Shown in pieces: positions 28,824 through 35,788 of a DNA stretch of 36,584 nucleotides (the stretch's first letter is position 1; each line of letters starts with the position of its first letter). Origin of the DNA: an uncultured Acidimicrobiaceae bacterium (lineage in GTDB: Bacteria; Actinomycetota; Acidimicrobiia; Spongiisociales; ZC4RG35); NCBI GenBank assembly GCA_964600055.1, contig CAZRID010000004.1:1-36584 (forward strand), given 5' to 3'. Under the pieces are notes generated by a model that saw only the letters and a program-made list of their open reading frames with translations, did no database searches and was not told where the DNA came from. A program made the translations under genes and the position numbers.

Positions 28824-29834
28824 CTAGATGGGTTCGCCGAGTGGCATCAAACACCAAGGGCAGAAACCCTTTCTGGCCCGTGGGGTGACCATCCGCGGCT
28901 CCGCTGGAAGGCGCCGAATGACCGAGTGATGCCTTTCGAGAGACGTTGCCCTGCGCAGTACGGCGTCAACTGATTCCCTTCGGGAGAGACCGCGCGCGCC
29001 AGGAAAGCCGCAACTTATGGAAGCGAGGGCTTGAGCAAAGGACAGGGCGTCCATGATTGCGTCGATCGTCAGACGGCCCCGCTGAGGAAGGGAGTGAATA
29101 AAACCGGCTGTGGTCCAATCGCCCGCCCCTCCGGGATCGACTACGGGCGCTTGAAACGACGGAGATGTCCGCCATGGCCGATTTCCTAACCGAAAACGGG
29201 CGCCTTGCCCACCCAAAGTCTCAATGCGGACCTGGGTTGCCGGCGCATCATGCAGGAGCCCTTCGAGGCCCGGGTCTCGATTGTCTGCGTATTTGATTAC
29301 ATCGGCCACTCTCATGATCCTGATGGAAAGTTCGGCAGGGGCTGGGCGCGAAGGCTCAAATATGATTCGAGATCGCTCTTTGGCGAAATGTTCGGCAAGC
29401 CGAACTGTTCCAGCATTGAGCCGGTCGAAGAAGAAGACACTCGGTGGCTCCGCGGTCGCGATGATCTCTTCCGCTCTGTCAACCGATAGGGGACGGCTGG
29501 CAGGTAGCCCAGACAAGCACCGGGGACATTTGAATACGTAGCGATGCCGTGGAGCGATCACCTCATGCAGTACACGAGGGGTTTGGAAGTTGTTTCTCAA
29601 CCTTACGAACCTGTCGGAGACATCCGACGATCTGAGGTCGGCTCGGGCCCGTCTGCCGGCAAGATCCAGGCCGTACTCAGCAATGAGTGACGAGTGCCAA
29701 CCCAAGAAAGCCAAGATCGCGGTGACATTTCCAGCCGTGCCGCCCGCCGAGTGCCGAACAGAACCTTGGTATAAGAGTATGTCTAGGGGAGTGTAGCCAG
29801 CGGCTAACACGGACCACGAGCTTGGGCCCGTCAT
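28824..29834 (-). CDS. PfkB/ribokinase-family kinase with additional CxxC motifs
   Basis: AGGTAGNV (N-terminal signature) and VVDPGGAGDW (anion hole and catalytic Asp); internal CPRC and C-terminal CPWC. Confidence 0.88.
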   Translation of the reverse strand: MTGPSSWSVLAAGYTPLDILLYQGSVRHSAGGTAGNVTAILAFLGWHSSLIAEYGLDLAGRRARADLRSSDVSDRFVRLRNNFQTPRVLHEVIAPRHRYVFKCPRCLSGLPASRPLSVDRAEEIIATAEPPSVFFFDRLNAGTVRLAEHFAKERSRIIFEPSRPAPAELSIRIMRVADVIKYADNRDPGLEGLLHDAPATQVRIETLGGQGARFRLGNRPWRTSPSFQAPVVDPGGAGDWTTAGFIHSLPQRGRLTIDAIMDALSFAQALASISCGFPGARGLSRRESVDAVLRRATSLERHHSVIRRLPAEPRMVTPRARKGFCPWCLMPLGEPI

Positions 29835-30895
29835 CGATATGGTTCACCCGTTAACCAGAGGTCGGTCAATTGACCATCGATGGCAAGAACGGCTGGATCG
29901 GCTTCTAGACGGAGGCCATAACGGGATGGACTTACGTGCATCACTCGAAGACCAATCTCATATGCAGCCAACAACACGCCGATAGACAGCAAGCGGGATG
30001 AGTGCGTCGACAAAACGAACCTCGCCGCCCCCAATGGGCGCAGGGATGCCTGATATCGTCGATGGAGTTCAACTACTGCGCGATACAGGTCGTAGGGATT
30101 GTTCTCGGCTGCGTAAAGGTAGTTACGAGGCTCGACAACGAGCGCGTCAAGCAACTCTCGGTGCTCCAAAATTAGGTCGTCACTTCGCCTGGGGTTGCTT
30201 GATGGGAATGGAAGCACCGGTATGACTTCGTCGGGTCTGATCTCTTCCAGAAGAACGCTTAGTTGCTCGCCGATCCCCTCGCCCAAGACAGGCACCCAGA
30301 CGGTCGCAGCCCAGGCGACGTAGTCGCTTGGCCCAGAGAAGCCGCCCAGAGGCCCCGGGGCTTCAGCTCCTTCCTGAAGGAGCGCACGATCCGCTAGTTG
30401 ACTGTCGCAAGCGAGGACGTGCAAGTCACCGGTCCACTGATTCTCATTGACGTGAAGGATGCCGCGAATTAGGGGAAAATAAACCGCCCTTGGCAGTCCC
30501 GAGATGTCGACAACTATCTGTTCATAGCGCTGCAGAAAACCCCCCTTTTGGAACGAATGACTCGTGCTAAGCCCAGCGGATCGAGCTGCGCTCACGTCTG
30601 CCGCAGGCAGTTCGAAGACAGAGCCCCCAGCGCTAACGACAAGATTGTCTACTTCGGTTCGGTTGGCTGCGGCGAGAGCAGCCATCCTCGGGTCGCCGTC
30701 TTCCCCAATGAAGCCGATCCTGACAACGTCTATATTGCCATTTGCGACAGGTGCCAGGCAGCGCAGCGATCGGGCGACCCGTGGATCGAAACCGCCGCCG
30801 ATCACCAAGAGAACGGGTCGTGTCGCGAGCCTCTCCCAGAGTTGCGCGACCTTATCATCCCCTTCGGTCGTGAAGTAGTTGAGCCATCGCATCAA
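29831..30895 (-). CDS. Conserved hypothetical protein, tandem Rossmann-like (possibly CARF-like) domains
   Basis: LLVIGGGFDPR, IVVDISGLPR, WVPVLGE, PVLPFPS..PRR.D and LSTHSSRLLSIG; overlaps both neighbours. Confidence 0.7.
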   Translation of the reverse strand: MMRWLNYFTTEGDDKVAQLWERLATRPVLLVIGGGFDPRVARSLRCLAPVANGNIDVVRIGFIGEDGDPRMAALAAANRTEVDNLVVSAGGSVFELPAADVSAARSAGLSTSHSFQKGGFLQRYEQIVVDISGLPRAVYFPLIRGILHVNENQWTGDLHVLACDSQLADRALLQEGAEAPGPLGGFSGPSDYVAWAATVWVPVLGEGIGEQLSVLLEEIRPDEVIPVLPFPSSNPRRSDDLILEHRELLDALVVEPRNYLYAAENNPYDLYRAVVELHRRYQASLRPLGAARFVLSTHSSRLLSIGVLLAAYEIGLRVMHVSPSRYGLRLEADPAVLAIDGQLTDLWLTGEPYR

Positions 30896-33932: not shown

Positions 33933-35788
33933 TTACCGGACCATCGAAAACGAAGCGTCCCGCTTTGGTCCTCGAACGCGGAGAGGTAGTCAGCGAGCAA
34001 GTCCGGGCCGGCTTTGCCCTTGATGTCAAGATTCCAGCATCGTGTCAAGTCAGGCGAGCAGCGATCCACTGATAGCGAAAACGCGACACTGGCAAGAAGC
34101 TCATGGTCGTTGCCTCCAATGTCGCCTTGGTCTCCAATTGCCGCGACGTCTCCGCGTGTGCGTGATGCGACCAATTGAGCCACGGTCCGCTTCGTCGTGG
34201 TGACTGGGACGACGTCAATCGAATGTGCAGACGTAACGACTTTGACCTGTAGGGCAGGCTCTCTGGCGACGACTTCGGAAACCAATTCGGAAAGTCGGTT
34301 CGCTCGTATGAACGATCCGGGTATCGGACTCACTGTCACCTGCATCGAGCGTGCATCGACCTTTAGCATTTCGAAACTCGGCAGCATCCGAAGTCGATCC
34401 ACGACATCGATCATCAAAGGCTCGGGGGTTGACCAGTCCGGAACTTCTGAGCCGAGGTCGATGATGAGACCCCCGTTATAGAGCCCGACAACCACTTGCG
34501 ACCATAGTCCAGAAGGGATCCATTTCCTGAGGTCCGCATGCAACGACTTTCCGCGCCCGCTAGCAAAACCAATGACTAGCCCAGTGTCAAGCAACCGAGA
34601 CAGTTCGGAACGAACGCGCTCGGGCGGGAGCTCCATCCGCCGTCGCGTAAAGCAAACCGTGCCGTCGTAGTCCAGGATCAACCCACCCACTCCTTGTCCC
34701 GAGACAGCATTGCGCCAAGCTCGGTAGGAACGTTCGCACACTGCTCGAACAGGGCTATCCAGAGGAGTTCCTAGCGAAGCTAGTTTGCGATCGACGGGGC
34801 CACTCACGGTCGGCGGCAACAACCGACTCAGACCCAGGTGGTAGAGACGCCTCCCAAATGCCGAGGCACCGGGGCGAGAAGCGTTGATACTCTGGTCGGT
34901 TGCGGTACGACCCGCCATCTGCATCGAAGCTACGAGAAGTTCGACTACCCCCGCAATGCCTTCATGCTTCGAATGCCACGTGACAACCGATGCCACGTCA
35001 TCCGGCAGAGCCCGCAACGTCGCTGCTGCCAACTTCTCCAGTGGAGCCGAGACCAGCCCAATAACACTTGTGGTCGAAGCCCTTCGGGCGACCCCGAAGT
35101 GGCGGCCGTGAGCGAAGTTTCTATAATCTGCTGTCTGCACCGCGGTGAGTCCGAGTTCGTGACAACGAACTTCGATATCAATTGAGATTGCAGTCAACTC
35201 CGGCGTTCGAAGCACTAAGAGATGCTCACGGACACTAGGTTGCTCAACGTCCGGCCAGGGCAACGACGTCGGGAGAGAGTCGTCGCCACAGTAAGCACGG
35301 CCCACAGCAGCCACCATCGACAGCAGGCTTGACGTGGCCAGGAAGCCCTCTTTTATGATCAACGGCGGAAGCGCTACCACTTGCACGGTATGTGGAACTA
35401 CTGCCTCCGCGCTTTCTTGTGGTCGAAGAGTCACCACGATGCTCGGATCGAACCGCCCCGATGCCATGCGACCCAAGACAGCCATTGCGTCAGGATGCTT
35501 TAGCCCCGCAGAGAACAACACCGCACCGGCGCGTATCAGCGGCGAAACCCGGGCGAACTCCAAGGGTGTCATCACGGTTGCTGGCTGCCCCGCAGTCGTT
35601 TCATGCAGGCGAGCTGCAAACGCTGCCGCGGCGAGGGTGCCTCCCGTGCCTATGAATATCGCTGGCCCTCCAGCTAGCGACGAAAGAGCGGTCCTTAAGG
35701 ACGAGAGGTCAGCAGATACGATCCGGCTGTACTGGTTCTCCAATGTGTCAATCTCGTCGTTGTAGGGCTGCATTTTGATCAAGCGCAC
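33929..35788 (-). CDS. SIS (sugar-phosphate isomerase/binding)-HAD phosphatase fusion
   Basis: SIS: IFIGTGGT, LFSAG, EGFLATSSL and DYRNFAHGRH. HAD: LDYDGT, ASGRG and GDQG..GGND.ELL. An alternative ATG start lies at 35773. Confidence 0.88.
   Translation of the reverse strand: MRLIKMQPYNDEIDTLENQYSRIVSADLSSLRTALSSLAGGPAIFIGTGGTLAAAAFAARLHETTAGQPATVMTPLEFARVSPLIRAGAVLFSAGLKHPDAMAVLGRMASGRFDPSIVVTLRPQESAEAVVPHTVQVVALPPLIIKEGFLATSSLLSMVAAVGRAYCGDDSLPTSLPWPDVEQPSVREHLLVLRTPELTAISIDIEVRCHELGLTAVQTADYRNFAHGRHFGVARRASTTSVIGLVSAPLEKLAAATLRALPDDVASVVTWHSKHEGIAGVVELLVASMQMAGRTATDQSINASRPGASAFGRRLYHLGLSRLLPPTVSGPVDRKLASLGTPLDSPVRAVCERSYRAWRNAVSGQGVGGLILDYDGTVCFTRRRMELPPERVRSELSRLLDTGLVIGFASGRGKSLHADLRKWIPSGLWSQVVVGLYNGGLIIDLGSEVPDWSTPEPLMIDVVDRLRMLPSFEMLKVDARSMQVTVSPIPGSFIRANRLSELVSEVVAREPALQVKVVTSAHSIDVVPVTTTKRTVAQLVASRTRGDVAAIGDQGDIGGNDHELLASVAFSLSVDRCSPDLTRCWNLDIKGKAGPDLLADYLSAFEDQSGTLRFRWSGK

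Follow-up and report, generated by a model that had tools for sequence, protein, structure and literature searches.

A five-gene PRTase-ATPase-CARF cassette as a candidate horizontally mobile conflict system

With moderate confidence, we read a five-gene cassette from an uncultured Acidimicrobiaceae bacterium as a self-contained, horizontally mobile conflict system, directed against phages or other mobile genetic elements (MGEs), with its second, third and fourth genes (g2-g3-g4) as the core. It is probably an immune system independent of CRISPR. The literature search found no description of such a five-gene system and no characterised equivalent, in line with the initial annotation, which could not match it to an experimentally characterised system. 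PADLOC likewise gave no whole-cassette match; only g2 and g4 were matched, whereas g1, g3 and g5 were not. The cassette spans positions 28824-35788 of the window, i.e. the whole stretch of 36,584 nucleotides analysed, and consists of the following genes:

g1, 33929-35788, minus strand, 619 aa: double-SIS and HAD-IIB fusion
g2, 32850-33932, minus strand, 360 aa: PRTase-CE phosphoribosyltransferase
g3, 30892-32853, minus strand, 653 aa: ORC-CDC6-like AAA+ ATPase
g4, 29831-30895, minus strand, 354 aa: stand-alone tandem CARF protein
g5, 28824-29834, minus strand, 336 aa: PfkB-family kinase

The window furthermore contains:

4503-9902: NACHT STAND protein
10855-11499: 2TM/Cap15 effector of CBASS
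11502-12413: CBASS cyclase
17931-26540: T4SS genes, adjoining the cassette
36546-36584, minus strand: tmRNA 3' end (RF00023 positions 336-374 of 374, 16.1 bits)

Five minus-strand genes with four stop/start overlaps had been claimed previously, and both the ORF coordinates and the junction sequences (ATGA, GTGA, TTGA and ATGA, a 4-nt overlap at 4/4 junctions) bore this out. The postulated island context was also recovered, as CBASS, the STAND protein and the conjugation module were all located in the window. The flanking "tRNA end", however, proved to be the 3' end of a tmRNA; ARAGORN detected no tRNA in the window, and the RF00023 match remains under the gathering score because the tmRNA is cut off by the window end. 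No transporter was found within the cassette and no conserved non-coding element at the cassette loci. A self-contained enzyme operon lacking a transporter supports the original preference for a conflict system over sugar catabolism.

Gene products and the modelled ATPase-CARF complex

The motifs DYDGT, DDFAGSG, GGGKT and GAGD, previously read as intact, are all present and invariant or nearly so across homologues. Judged by its sequence, g2 is a member of the PRTase-CE family, which includes the retron type III-A effectors. It matches Pfam PF24390 (6.9e-23, 82.3 bits versus a cut-off of 27, residues 53-351) and five PADLOC PRTase_III-A models (best 3.8e-18); its profile gave no sequence match in the PDB at E<=1. 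DDFAGSG corresponds to D195-G201, with D195 and D196 present in 67/67 homologues from related loci. The PRPP loop D195-D196-F-x-x-S200-G201 and the G311-x14-P326-N327-N328 stretch are invariant in homologues. The latter corresponds to the Gx14PNNxP motif of the retron type III-A PRTase effector, for which PMC12746101 describes loss-of-defence assays using a catalytic PRTase mutant and, upon activation of the retron-Eco11 effector, a PRPP drop of ~50% (P = 0.04). The PRPP-centred mechanism proposed in the initial annotation fits a family of which one member lowers PRPP, and by analogy g2 would be the PRPP-consuming effector of the cassette.

The g3 protein itself matches Pfam PF24389 at residues 439-617 only (3.6e-11), and the family was matched by 29/29 g3 homologues (best 1.3e-30). 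The nearest Atlas clusters (score 0.99) are named 'ORC-CDC6 family AAA ATPase' and comprise proteins of ~640 aa. GGGKT represents G52-T56; the Walker A residues G52, G54 and K55 occur in 73/73 homologues from related loci, and Walker B D238-D239 as well as R248, R286 and R324 are invariant. Neither Pfam nor PADLOC detected an effector-type domain in g3, the C-terminal half of which may harbour a hidden one. We propose that g3 acts as the sensor/switch.

The fourth gene, initially described as "Rossmann", encodes a stand-alone tandem CARF protein, with an N-terminal CARF at residues ~27-165, a C-terminal CARF at ~195-330 and no effector domain. Pfam gave no match for g4, whereas PADLOC PDLC01910 'CARF6--CARF_CARF_CARF' covered its full length (3.6e-85). 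In a wide structural search, the AF2 model (pLDDT 91.5, pTM 0.92) matched best to Can1 6sce (Z 15.1, rmsd 3.0, 233 aligned, residues 27-326), followed by Csm6, Can2, Cam1, Card1, Csx1 and Csa3 at Z 9-11.7. Conserved residues cluster in the canonical ligand loops of the fold, which follow strands beta1 and beta4 of both halves (G33/G35-F-D37-x-R39, S132/P135, W200/P202/G205 and S296/S300/K301/S304/G306). With its nucleotide-ligand CARF fold, g4 would serve as the ligand sensor; a signal synthase of known kind is absent from the cassette, a point against the conflict reading. The previously suggested ATPase-gated linear pathway had to be revised: since g4 adopts a double CARF sensor fold, the scheme becomes one of a sensor and an effector combined with processing enzymes. 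A DNA-binding output domain was detected in neither g3 nor g4.

Modelling of g3 (residues 1-640) together with g4 supports binding of the ATPase to the CARF protein. Three runs yielded ipSAE values of 0.63, 0.65 and 0.66 (median 0.65), versus 0.07 for the best of three controls. The runs share at least 85% of contacts, with a partner pLDDT of at least 84, and no solved complex similar to g3-g4 was found by sequence. The mark was reached by 58/80 solved complexes and 2/110 mismatched pairs, counts that are rough because our own alignments were used.

The g1 protein comprises a double-SIS phosphosugar isomerase/deaminase-like module (residues ~20-305) and a HAD-IIB (Cof/PMM/T6PP-like) phosphatase/mutase module (~345-619). 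Since the alignment with homologues begins at residue ~7-9, translation of g1 probably starts at the ATG at 35773, five codons past the GTG listed. Pfam did not match the window protein itself, whereas 23/32 homologues matched Hydrolase_3. A profile of these 32 homologues matched NagB-II/GlmS-like 8eol/3hba in the PDB at residues 22-304 (E 1.4e-5) and HAD-IIB entries at ~344-589. According to Foldseek, the AF2 model (pLDDT 91.9) resembles NagB-II 8eym (TM-target 0.75-0.76), the GlmS isomerase, PMM and T6PP. DYDGT corresponds to D373-T377; D373, D375 and T377 are present in 67/67 homologues from related loci, and G411-G413, K533, G552-D553 and N560-D561 of the HAD module are likewise invariant.

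Sequence comparison places g5 among PfkB kinases of the fructokinase / aminoimidazole-riboside-kinase / ketohexokinase type (Pfam PfkB, 5.8e-16, 59.1 bits versus a cut-off of 25.8). All 15 NCBIfam equivalog matches were far under their cut-offs, the best being ribose-1-phosphate kinase (52 bits versus 330), and the best PDB matches of the profile were fructokinase 5ey7 (2.4e-22), PH1459 and 1tyy (1.2e-21). GAGD represents G236-D239, with G236, G238 and D239 in 48/48 homologues from related loci; D18, G31-G32, N36 and D233-x-x-G236-A-G238-D239 are invariant, and a four-cysteine site (C103, C106, C325, C328) is conserved in 45-47/48 sequences. The families of g1 and g5 are usually metabolic, an observation that speaks against the conflict reading, and RefSeq lists homologues simply as HAD hydrolase, sucrose-6-phosphate hydrolase or PfkB kinase.

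Distribution, mobility and neighbourhood

A scan of one genome per species (185,579 species) retrieved 105 relatives, and 80 loci were retained. The canonical cassette, defined as five genes in the same order and on the same strand with at least 75% coverage, was present in 57/80 related loci. Six loci contained all five genes with altered order or strand, nine were cut by a contig end, and eight were incomplete or degraded. After setting aside the contig-end cuts, all five genes were full-length in 63/71 loci, and the 4-nt overlaps were found in 38/51 loci for g1/g2 and in 45/51 for g2/g3. The cassette is conserved far beyond chance, as the synteny check suggested in the initial annotation confirmed. 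The notion of a five-gene unit held only in part: the genes are conserved together, but the kinase and the SIS-HAD protein lie outside the invariant core and change position. PRTase-ATPase-CARF is the invariant block, and SIS-HAD and PfkB form a movable accessory arm. On a B. gladioli plasmid, PfkB is replaced by NADAR, and on Sphingomonas and S. meliloti plasmids, NADAR is added to the cassette. NADAR domains are described as ribosyl N-glycosidases in section 3.4.3 of PMC9503650, and these variants point to ribosyl N-glycoside chemistry.

The distribution is patchy, and the cassette has spread horizontally. The same gene order occurs in archaea and in ten or more bacterial phyla, and archaeal and bacterial rows are interleaved in a tree of g3 that covers 67 of 73 rows. 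A PF24389 search of 301 genomes of the window's phylum gave a g3-like match (model positions 402-563) only in the window's own genome. The majority of the 80 loci are chromosomal. The cassette was also detected on 19 plasmid records, nine of them conjugative, and in none of 50,697 phage records. Many copies are located on large rhizobial plasmids with catabolic cargo, and on a Sulfitobacter plasmid the cassette sits between T4CP/relaxase and virB11. The proximity to conjugation genes, there and in the window, also fits a plasmid-serving function and in this respect counts against a conflict role.

We scanned 150 of 204 candidate flanking ORFs, taken from loci L001-L052 only, and found no conserved neighbour. 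PADLOC matches at E<=1e-8 included ThsA-like (three), BrxE (two), BrxL, mad2/mad3, MkoA (two), Drt4, Drt6, a type I MTase, AbiEii and several PDC candidates. Among the top-25 families listed, defence matches amounted to ~20/150 neighbours, which speaks for a conflict role, although the count is uncontrolled and comes from models that include generic domains. Pfam revealed three SIR2_2 proteins, three integrases and one resolvase, and many neighbours were housekeeping proteins (ABC transporters, MFS, ACCase, SRP54). No cas genes occurred among the top families of the 150 neighbours. The Cas10 palm2 domain (PF22335) was found in 0/11 carrier genomes, namely ten others and the window's own, which is 86% complete; the same search was positive in 6/14 control genomes.

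Known systems, alternative explanations and proposed mechanism

The retron type III-A systems (Retron-Eco11, type III-A3) share with the cassette the effector family of g2, including the PRPP loop and G-x14-PNN. In PMC12746101, a co-encoded sensor module restrains the effector, and PRPP consumption is the reported output. In contrast, the cassette lacks a reverse transcriptase and an msr/msd ncRNA, g2 has no C-terminal wHTH, sensing would fall to an ORC/Cdc6-like ATPase and a tandem CARF, and the gene set is enlarged by two or three sugar-phosphate/ribosyl enzymes. The modest PRPP effect of retron-Eco11 and the absence here of its effector's wHTH and its retron partner argue against the conflict reading. 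For ShosTA (ShosT PRTase plus pyrophosphatase), PMC11961720 reports that purine metabolism is disrupted by the ShosT toxin, and a PRTase-fold toxin perturbing purine/PRPP metabolism as anti-phage output would be the common element. ShosTA differs, however, in that it is a TA system of two genes, its antitoxin is DprA-like and its PRTase belongs to another family; no PADLOC Shos model matched g2. The Ter/tellurite-resistance modules, a computational proposal, likewise combine PRTases with HAD phosphoesterases, which according to PMC7824862 would make a nucleoside/nucleotide-like signal within a conflict system. The cassette lacks TerB, TerC, TerD and TelA and has a different PRTase family, and Ter systems lack the CARF and ORC-like ATPase. 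The CARF effectors of type III CRISPR (Can1, Can2/Card1, Csm6, Cam1, Cad1) resemble g4 in fold, and Can1 also carries two CARFs in one chain, whereas g4 is unfused, is predicted to bind an AAA+ ATPase encoded by another gene and occurs in carriers of which 0/11 yielded Cas10. RtcR likewise places an AAA+ ATPase under the control of a CARF sensor, but within a single sigma54-activator polypeptide that has an HTH domain and regulates RNA repair genes. The cassette, by contrast, employs two proteins and an ORC/Cdc6-like rather than NtrC-like ATPase, with no DNA-binding output detected.

That PRTase, SIS-HAD and PfkB (with NADAR where present) build and mature a PRPP-derived messenger, which the tandem CARF reads and the ATPase or its C-terminal half executes as effector, seems to us rather unlikely, even though the CARF needs a ligand and Cas10 was found in 0/11 carrier genomes. 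The Ter proposal, the work of the cassette in many contexts without CBASS, the predicted docking of the CARF on the ATPase instead of an effector fusion, and the retention of three or four ribosyl/sugar-phosphate enzymes with the core are in its favour. The closest characterised g2 relatives are effectors and not signal synthases, however, the loss of PfkB on the B. gladioli plasmid sits poorly with a biosynthetic route in which every step is required, and g3 has no detected effector-type domain. Unlikely, too, is a niche metabolic operon for salvage or catabolism of an unusual nucleoside, ribosylamine or ketosamine (Amadori-type), with ATPase-CARF as a metabolite-sensing regulator. PfkB kinases, double-SIS enzymes and HAD phosphatases are families of known sugar-phosphate routes, such as those of fructoselysine (FrlD/FrlB) and heptose (GmhA/HldA/GmhB). 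The fructokinase and aminoimidazole-riboside kinase relatives of g5, the similarity of the g1 SIS half to NagB-II, GlmS and AgaS, and the catabolic cargo of the rhizobial plasmids agree with such an operon. Against it stand the retron-effector family of the PRTase, the lack of a conserved transporter or catabolic end-enzymes beside the cassette, the missing DNA-binding output in g3 and g4, the sparse occurrence (also within the window's own phylum), the gene order shared across archaea and bacteria, and the incomplete or degraded copies.

The plasmid-borne copies and the T4SS-adjacent positions could also reflect service to a plasmid or ICE, in counter-defence or competition, by degrading or sponging host immune nucleotides or rebuilding depleted nucleotide pools; the CARF would then be a sponge or ring nuclease, and HAD, NADAR and kinase would degrade signals. 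Stand-alone CARF ring nucleases do exist (e.g. Sso2081, a g4 fold match at Z 9.0), and NADAR and related enzymes appear in PMC9503650 as viral tools against ADPr-derived signals. We nevertheless regard this as quite improbable, given the mostly chromosomal loci, the lack of a conserved MGE gene among the neighbours, the absence from phage records, and a retron-type toxic PRTase and AAA+ switch that a sponge or degradation role leaves unexplained. Finally, g4 might read cyclic oligoadenylate (cOA) supplied by a type III CRISPR system at another locus of the genome, and its best fold matches are all cOA-binding CARF proteins. The Cas10 results and the lack of cas genes among the top neighbour families largely refute this reading, which we consider highly improbable.

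For the conflict system favoured here, we propose the trigger, ligand, acceptor, direction of control and defence phenotype as follows. ATPase and CARF would assemble into a sensor/switch that responds jointly to an invader cue and to a small nucleotide-like ligand; once triggered, this complex would license the PRTase. The latter would phosphoribosylate an acceptor, probably an amine, and the ensuing PRPP consumption would starve nucleotide synthesis, an outcome reported for the related effector of retron-Eco11. The accessory arm (g1, g5 and, in some variants, NADAR) may interconvert or remove the ribosyl/ribotide product or make the CARF ligand from it, and would thereby provide the system with a threshold, a reset or self-protection.

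The five-gene cassette and its island

The five minus-strand open reading frames (ORFs) assigned to the cassette in the initial annotation are all present exactly at the positions given there (window 28824-35788). At each of the four junctions, the claimed stop/start overlap amounts to 4 nt (ATGA, GTGA, TTGA, and ATGA). The catalytic motifs described as intact were recovered at residues 373-377 of g1, 195-201 of g2, 52-56 of g3, and 236-239 of g5, and the key positions show little or no variation among homologues from related loci (n = 67, 67, 73, and 48, respectively).

Genes of the cassette
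33929-35788, minus strand: g1, SIS-HAD fusion
32850-33932, minus strand: g2, PRTase
30892-32853, minus strand: g3, ATPase
29831-30895, minus strand: g4, tandem CARF protein
28824-29834, minus strand: g5, PfkB kinase

CBASS, a STAND protein, and a conjugation module had been reported on the same island, and all three were located in the window.

Further features of the window
4503-9902, minus strand: NACHT STAND protein of 1799 aa; its NACHT and AAA_22 matches are weak and do not reach the Pfam cut-offs
10855-11499, minus strand: CBASS effector of the 2TM/Cap15 type, with a Cap15 cyclic-dinucleotide receptor domain
11502-12413, minus strand: CBASS cyclase (PADLOC Cyclase, 1.2e-116; no Pfam match)
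15671-16735: ECF-type sigma factor
17931-26540: T4SS/conjugation genes (TcpC-like, VirB4-like AAA_10, TrbL-like, and coupling protein, T4CP)
27853-28440: secreted-looking protein with a peptidoglycan-binding domain, after the conjugation module and just before the cassette
36546-36584, minus strand: 3' end of a tmRNA gene (ssrA; Rfam), last 39 bases, truncated at the contig end, with a hairpin after it

The cyclase and its effector form a two-gene type I-like CBASS (10855-12413, minus strand). PADLOC gave no match for the STAND protein, and its three downstream ORFs (1307-4219) matched neither Pfam nor PADLOC. The tRNA proposed for the window end was rejected, as ARAGORN found no tRNA and Rfam identified the truncated tmRNA, the only hit in its scan of 35700-36584. 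The ssrA gene is a classical integration site. The island abuts it, yet the 750 bp between ssrA and g1 contain no integrase. A promoter and terminator scan of 28300-36584 was uninformative, with 0 promoter-like sites (2.3 in shuffled sequences) and 7 terminator-like sites (7.1 in shuffled sequences).

The g2-g3-g4 core: tandem CARF protein, ATPase, and PRTase

The g4 product, initially listed as a "Rossmann" protein, turned out to match the PADLOC profile PDLC01910 (CARF6--CARF_CARF_CARF) end to end, with an E-value of 3.6e-85 (residues 2-354; profile positions 1-348 of 348), and is thus a tandem CARF protein. Five further CARF6 profiles of PADLOC also match. The structure model (pLDDT 91.5, pTM 0.92) contains two Rossmann-like CARF copies in one chain. 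Its best VIA match was Can1 (6sce; Z 15.1, 233 aligned residues, rmsd 3.0), followed by Csm6 (8jbc; Z 11.7), Can2 (7bdv; Z 11.1), and Cam1 (Z 10.8), with unrelated rows at Z ~7-8. Can1 likewise carries two CARF domains in one chain, but g4 is devoid of an effector domain. The tandem USP/KCC C-terminal domains that Foldseek placed on top were rejected on account of a TM score of ~0.25, an rmsd of ~18 Å, and the CARF result from VIA, a search independent of Foldseek; we judge this ranking to be a domain-orientation artefact. The g4 profile produced one chance match only (E 0.4) when compared with the PDB sequences.

Several loop residues of g4 show at least 90% conservation across 78 sequences: G33, G35, F36, D37, and R39 after the strand 28-33; S132 and P135 after the strand 126-130; W200, P202, and G205 at the strand 195-203; and S296, S300, K301, S304, and G306 after the strand 290-297. 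The loops after β1 and β4, with their polar/glycine motifs, we take to be the ligand site of CARF domains. By profile and structure model, g4 is a member of the CARF superfamily, PADLOC clade CARF6, and may bind a ligand of the cyclic or linear oligonucleotide type.

None of the 11 carrier genomes, neither the ten others nor the window's own (86% complete), yielded a match to the Cas10 palm2 family, whereas 6 of 14 control genomes did. Dependence of the cassette on type III CRISPR was therefore rejected. With Cas10 undetected in these carriers, type III CRISPR is very unlikely to supply the input of g4.

The C-terminal part of g3 matches the ORC-CDC6-like family PF24389 with 43 bits (cut-off 27). 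All 29 g3 homologues match the same family (best E-value 1.3e-30; Atlas clusters score 0.99), and the Walker A residues G52, G54, and K55 as well as the Walker B residues D238 and D239 are invariant. These features assign g3 to the ORC-CDC6-like AAA+ ATPases. The g3 profile gave merely Walker-A-level matches to TRIP13 (E ~0.01) among the PDB sequences. PF24389 exceeded its cut-off in 6 of 301 genomes of the phylum, the window's own included; this tally takes in, as a count only, the unpublished genomes G148, G174, G120, G001, and G018. Two of the others among these six, G201 and G134, encode shorter ORC-CDC6-like proteins that have no PRTase neighbour, so ORC-CDC6-like ATPase and PRTase are no fixed pair outside the cassette. 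At one G201 locus (L112, contig C63, 600-3297), a 574-aa ORC-CDC6-like ATPase adjoins an Mrr-type restriction endonuclease. This ATPase family thus enters other defence-like pairings without PRTase as well.

A complex of g3 and g4 was modelled with residues 1-640 of g3 (29-row alignment) and a 26-row alignment of g4. The runs yielded ipSAE values of 0.63, 0.65, and 0.66, compared with 0.07 for the best of three controls. Of 80 solved complexes, 58 attain the ipSAE mark, against 2 of 110 mismatched pairs; these figures are a rough guide, because our own alignments were used. The runs share at least 85% of their contacts, with a partner pLDDT of at least 84. On the g3 side, the modelled interface comprises residues 184-199, including the conserved D195, and 509-518; on the g4 side, it consists of residues 103-117, 141-149, and 173-192, located in helices and a linker. 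The model supports binding of g3 to g4 through this predicted interface. Its score is unlikely to reflect a memorised structure, as no similar solved complex is detectable by sequence.

The g2 product matches PRTase-CE (PF24390) with 82.3 bits (cut-off 27; residues 53-351, profile positions 2-253 of 253) and is the only protein of the window's own genome above this cut-off. It also matches five PADLOC models labelled PRTase_III-A, a label that refers to retron type III-A effectors and not to CRISPR III-A. Its type I PRPP loop reads V-L-V-D195-D196-F-A-G-S200-G201, with D195, D196, and S200 kept in 67/67 sequences and G201 in 66/67. The g2 profile found nothing at E ≤ 1 among the PDB sequences. 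A motif Gx14PNNxP is described as common to the PRTase-like effectors of type III-A retrons in PMC12746101, which also states that Retron-Eco11 is activated by phage helicases and becomes toxic, with PRPP falling by about half. In g2, G311-x14-P326-N327-N328 is invariant, and the last proline of the motif is not conserved (Ile330 in the window). Retrons have a reverse transcriptase and an msr/msd ncRNA beside the effector, whereas none of the five cassette genes encodes a reverse transcriptase. A conserved non-coding element was absent from 70 upstream and 78 downstream flanks. Rfam detected only the tmRNA in 35700-36584, and the cassette is therefore not a retron.

Accessory enzymes, variants, and spread

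The g1 protein of the window itself has no Pfam match. A profile built from 32 of its 1575 relatives and compared with PDB sequences matched the double-SIS proteins 8eol and 3hba of the NagB-II/GlmS type over residues 22-304 (E 1.4e-5) and HAD-IIB phosphatases/mutases over residues ~344-589. Hydrolase_3 (Pfam) was matched by 23 of the 32 homologues. The g1 model (pLDDT 91.9) superposes on NagB-II (8eym; Foldseek TM-target 0.75-0.76), the GlmS isomerase domain, phosphomannomutase, and trehalose-6-phosphate phosphatase. Its SIS half has two SIS domains with putative phosphate-binding Ser/Gly loops, the conserved residues being G47-S48-G49-G50, D100, G148-F-L-A-T152, and H227-G-R-H230. The HAD motifs are D373-x-D375-G-T377 (I), A409-S-G411-R-G413 (containing II), K533 (III), and G552-D553...G559-N560-D561 (IV), each of them retained in no fewer than 65 of the 67 sequences. 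Profile and model together identify g1 as a predicted double-SIS phosphosugar isomerase-type module fused to a HAD of subclass IIB (Cof/PMM/T6PP-like).

The g5 product matches PfkB (Pfam) with 59.1 bits (cut-off 25.8). The sugar motif (G31-G32, N36) and the catalytic DxxGAGD motif (D233..G236-A-G238-D239) are invariant, and its nearest relatives are fructokinase, aminoimidazole-riboside kinase, and ketohexokinase. All 15 NCBIfam equivalog matches lie far below their cut-offs (best, ribose-1-phosphate kinase with 52.1 bits vs 330), so that g5 falls outside the ribokinase, ribose-1-phosphate kinase, fructokinase, FrlD, and HldE domain I equivalogs. Two cysteine pairs, C103-x2-C106 and C325-x2-C328, are kept in 45-47 of 48 homologues. 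The sequence suggests that they form a zinc site made up of an insert and the C-terminal tail; such a site is not known as a feature of typical PfkB kinases.

Eight plasmid loci were checked by annotation and tblastn. In all of them g2-g3-g4 is contiguous, and g1 and g5 move.

Gene order at the eight plasmid loci
Paenarthrobacter pTC2: g2-g3-g4-g1-g5
Bradyrhizobium: g1-g5-g2-g3-g4
Sphingomonas and S. meliloti: g1-g5 followed by NADAR on the opposite strand, an HTH gene, and g2-g3-g4
Burkholderia gladioli bgla_2p: NADAR-g1-g2-g3-g4, no PfkB within 9 kb
Agrobacterium, Sulfitobacter, and R. leguminosarum: g1-g2-g3-g4-g5, as in the window

NADAR was confirmed by Pfam at three loci (E 1e-24 to 1e-26). 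According to section 3.4.3 of PMC9503650, NADAR domains are ribosyl N-glycosidases whose substrates are riboflavin intermediates and derivatives of ADP-ribose. On the S. meliloti plasmid pRRI128_5, the g1-PfkB-NADAR arm has a second g3-like/g4-like pair (L117, 1-1091 and upstream) immediately upstream, and a single accessory arm may serve two core modules there. In the Sphingomonas (L116, 1-698) and Agrobacterium (L118, 12875-13435) plasmids, an annotated nucleoside 2-deoxyribosyltransferase (NDT) gene lies, perhaps by chance, at a distance of a few kb from the cassette; NDT-like proteins are effectors of type II retrons. On the conjugative plasmid of Sulfitobacter alexandrii (L120, 3100-10171), the cassette sits between relaxase/coupling-protein genes and virB11, a placement that echoes its position beside the T4SS genes in the window.

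A g4 profile built from 26 of 120 relatives among the matches listed retrieved 105 relatives from a one-genome-per-species collection (185,579 species), of which 80 loci were kept. A scan of genome contigs with a single g4 sequence gave 135 pattern matches and 0 relatives. The loci were classified by tblastn of the five window proteins. The five-gene synteny proposed as a check is borne out by 57/80 loci, with all five genes full-length in the same order and on the same strand. Three have the order g2-g3-g4-g1-g5, in three g5 is inverted, nine are cut by contig ends, and eight are incomplete or degraded. These last copies, some of them interrupted, are L014, L017, L047, L055, L065, L066, L078, and L079, where g3 is split and several kb are inserted. 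The 4-nt overlap recurs in 38 of 51 loci for g1/g2 and in 45 of 51 for g2/g3.

Bacterial carriers belong to Actinomycetota, Myxococcota, Acidobacteriota, Chloroflexota, Bacteroidota, Planctomycetota, Nitrospirota, and other phyla, archaeal ones to Bathyarchaeia, Methanoregula, and a Thaumarchaeote. A quickly built g3 tree, covering 67 of 73 rows, clusters by phylum, with the archaeal rows inside a bacterial clade and several mixed clades, for which MAG binning errors are possible. The cassette occurs on 19 plasmid records, nine of them conjugative, and on 0 of 50,697 phage records. RefSeq names the products HAD hydrolase or sucrose-6-phosphate hydrolase, hypothetical protein (three genes), and PfkB kinase.

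Neighbours were surveyed in the first 150 of 204 candidate flanking ORFs (loci L001-L052), and no family was conserved among them. Their Pfam matches were mixed housekeeping families, three integrases, three SIR2_2, and four sigma factors. PADLOC matches at E ≤ 1e-8 included ThsA-like, BREX, MADS, Mokosh, DRT, type I RM, AbiE, and several PDC candidates. Defence-type ORFs made up ~20 of the 150, as counted among the top-25 families listed and without a matched control, which suggests an association of the cassette with defence islands. All-against-all blastn of the 70 upstream and 78 downstream flanks revealed similarity between close relatives only and none to the window.

Proposed function and relation to known systems

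Among the component models of PADLOC-DB v2.0.0, PRTase_III-A matches g2 and CARF6 matches g4; g1, g3, and g5 have no match at E ≤ 0.1. Judged by these models, no single named PADLOC system has all components of the cassette or covers it, and full-text literature searches yielded no description of, or experiment on, the five-gene cassette, in agreement with the earlier statement that it matches no experimentally characterised system. A previous computational mention of CARF6 in this context may exist. The parts are already catalogued as profiles or families (CARF6, PRTase-CE, and ORC-CDC6-like), and their adjacent accession numbers suggest that they were defined together.

We rate the cassette as a probable CARF-gated system with a PRTase effector. 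The ATPase-CARF pair g3-g4 would serve as the sensor or switch, and g2 would phosphoribosylate an acceptor, thereby draining PRPP. SIS-HAD, PfkB, and NADAR would act on the resulting ribosyl compound, for reset, as an antidote, or in ligand maturation. It is tempting to speculate that an amine provides the acceptor nitrogen and that the pathway involves ribosylamine/ketosamine-type intermediates, because some variants contain an N-glycosidase and because the kinase and SIS types resemble enzymes of ketosamine and aminosugar phosphates. FrlD/FrlB and GlmS provide the kinase/SIS analogies for these compounds.

The cassette's own small set of ribosyl and sugar-phosphate enzymes points to a metabolite, whose role could be that of ligand, toxic product, or antidote substrate. 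The main alternative assigns messenger synthesis to the accessory enzymes and the effector role to the ATPase. A bolder proposal, which we consider rather unlikely, is that the cassette represents the first Cas10-independent CARF immune pathway making its own messenger. From PRPP, the PRTase would make an N-ribotide; SIS, HAD, and PfkB (plus NADAR in some variants) would mature, recycle, or destroy it; and the tandem CARF would read this non-oligoadenylate ligand and switch the ORC/Cdc6-like ATPase. If true, both the class of second messenger and the enzymology of immune signalling would be new, and bacteria and archaea would share them. That new messenger chemistry of some kind is hidden in the cassette has a realistic chance.

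If the CARF-gated system with a PRTase effector is indeed a defence system, it would join CARF ligand sensing, as in type III CRISPR, and PRTase/PRPP-targeting effectors, as in type III-A retrons, which have so far been found apart, in one cassette that needs neither CRISPR nor retron. The cassette measures ~7 kb and is intact in cultured, tractable organisms, among them Paenarthrobacter aurescens TC1 (pTC2), Corallococcus sicarius, and Rhizobium leguminosarum (plasmids). Owing to this compactness, the cultured carriers, and the clear catalytic residues in every component, the question of what a non-CRISPR CARF protein senses would become directly testable.
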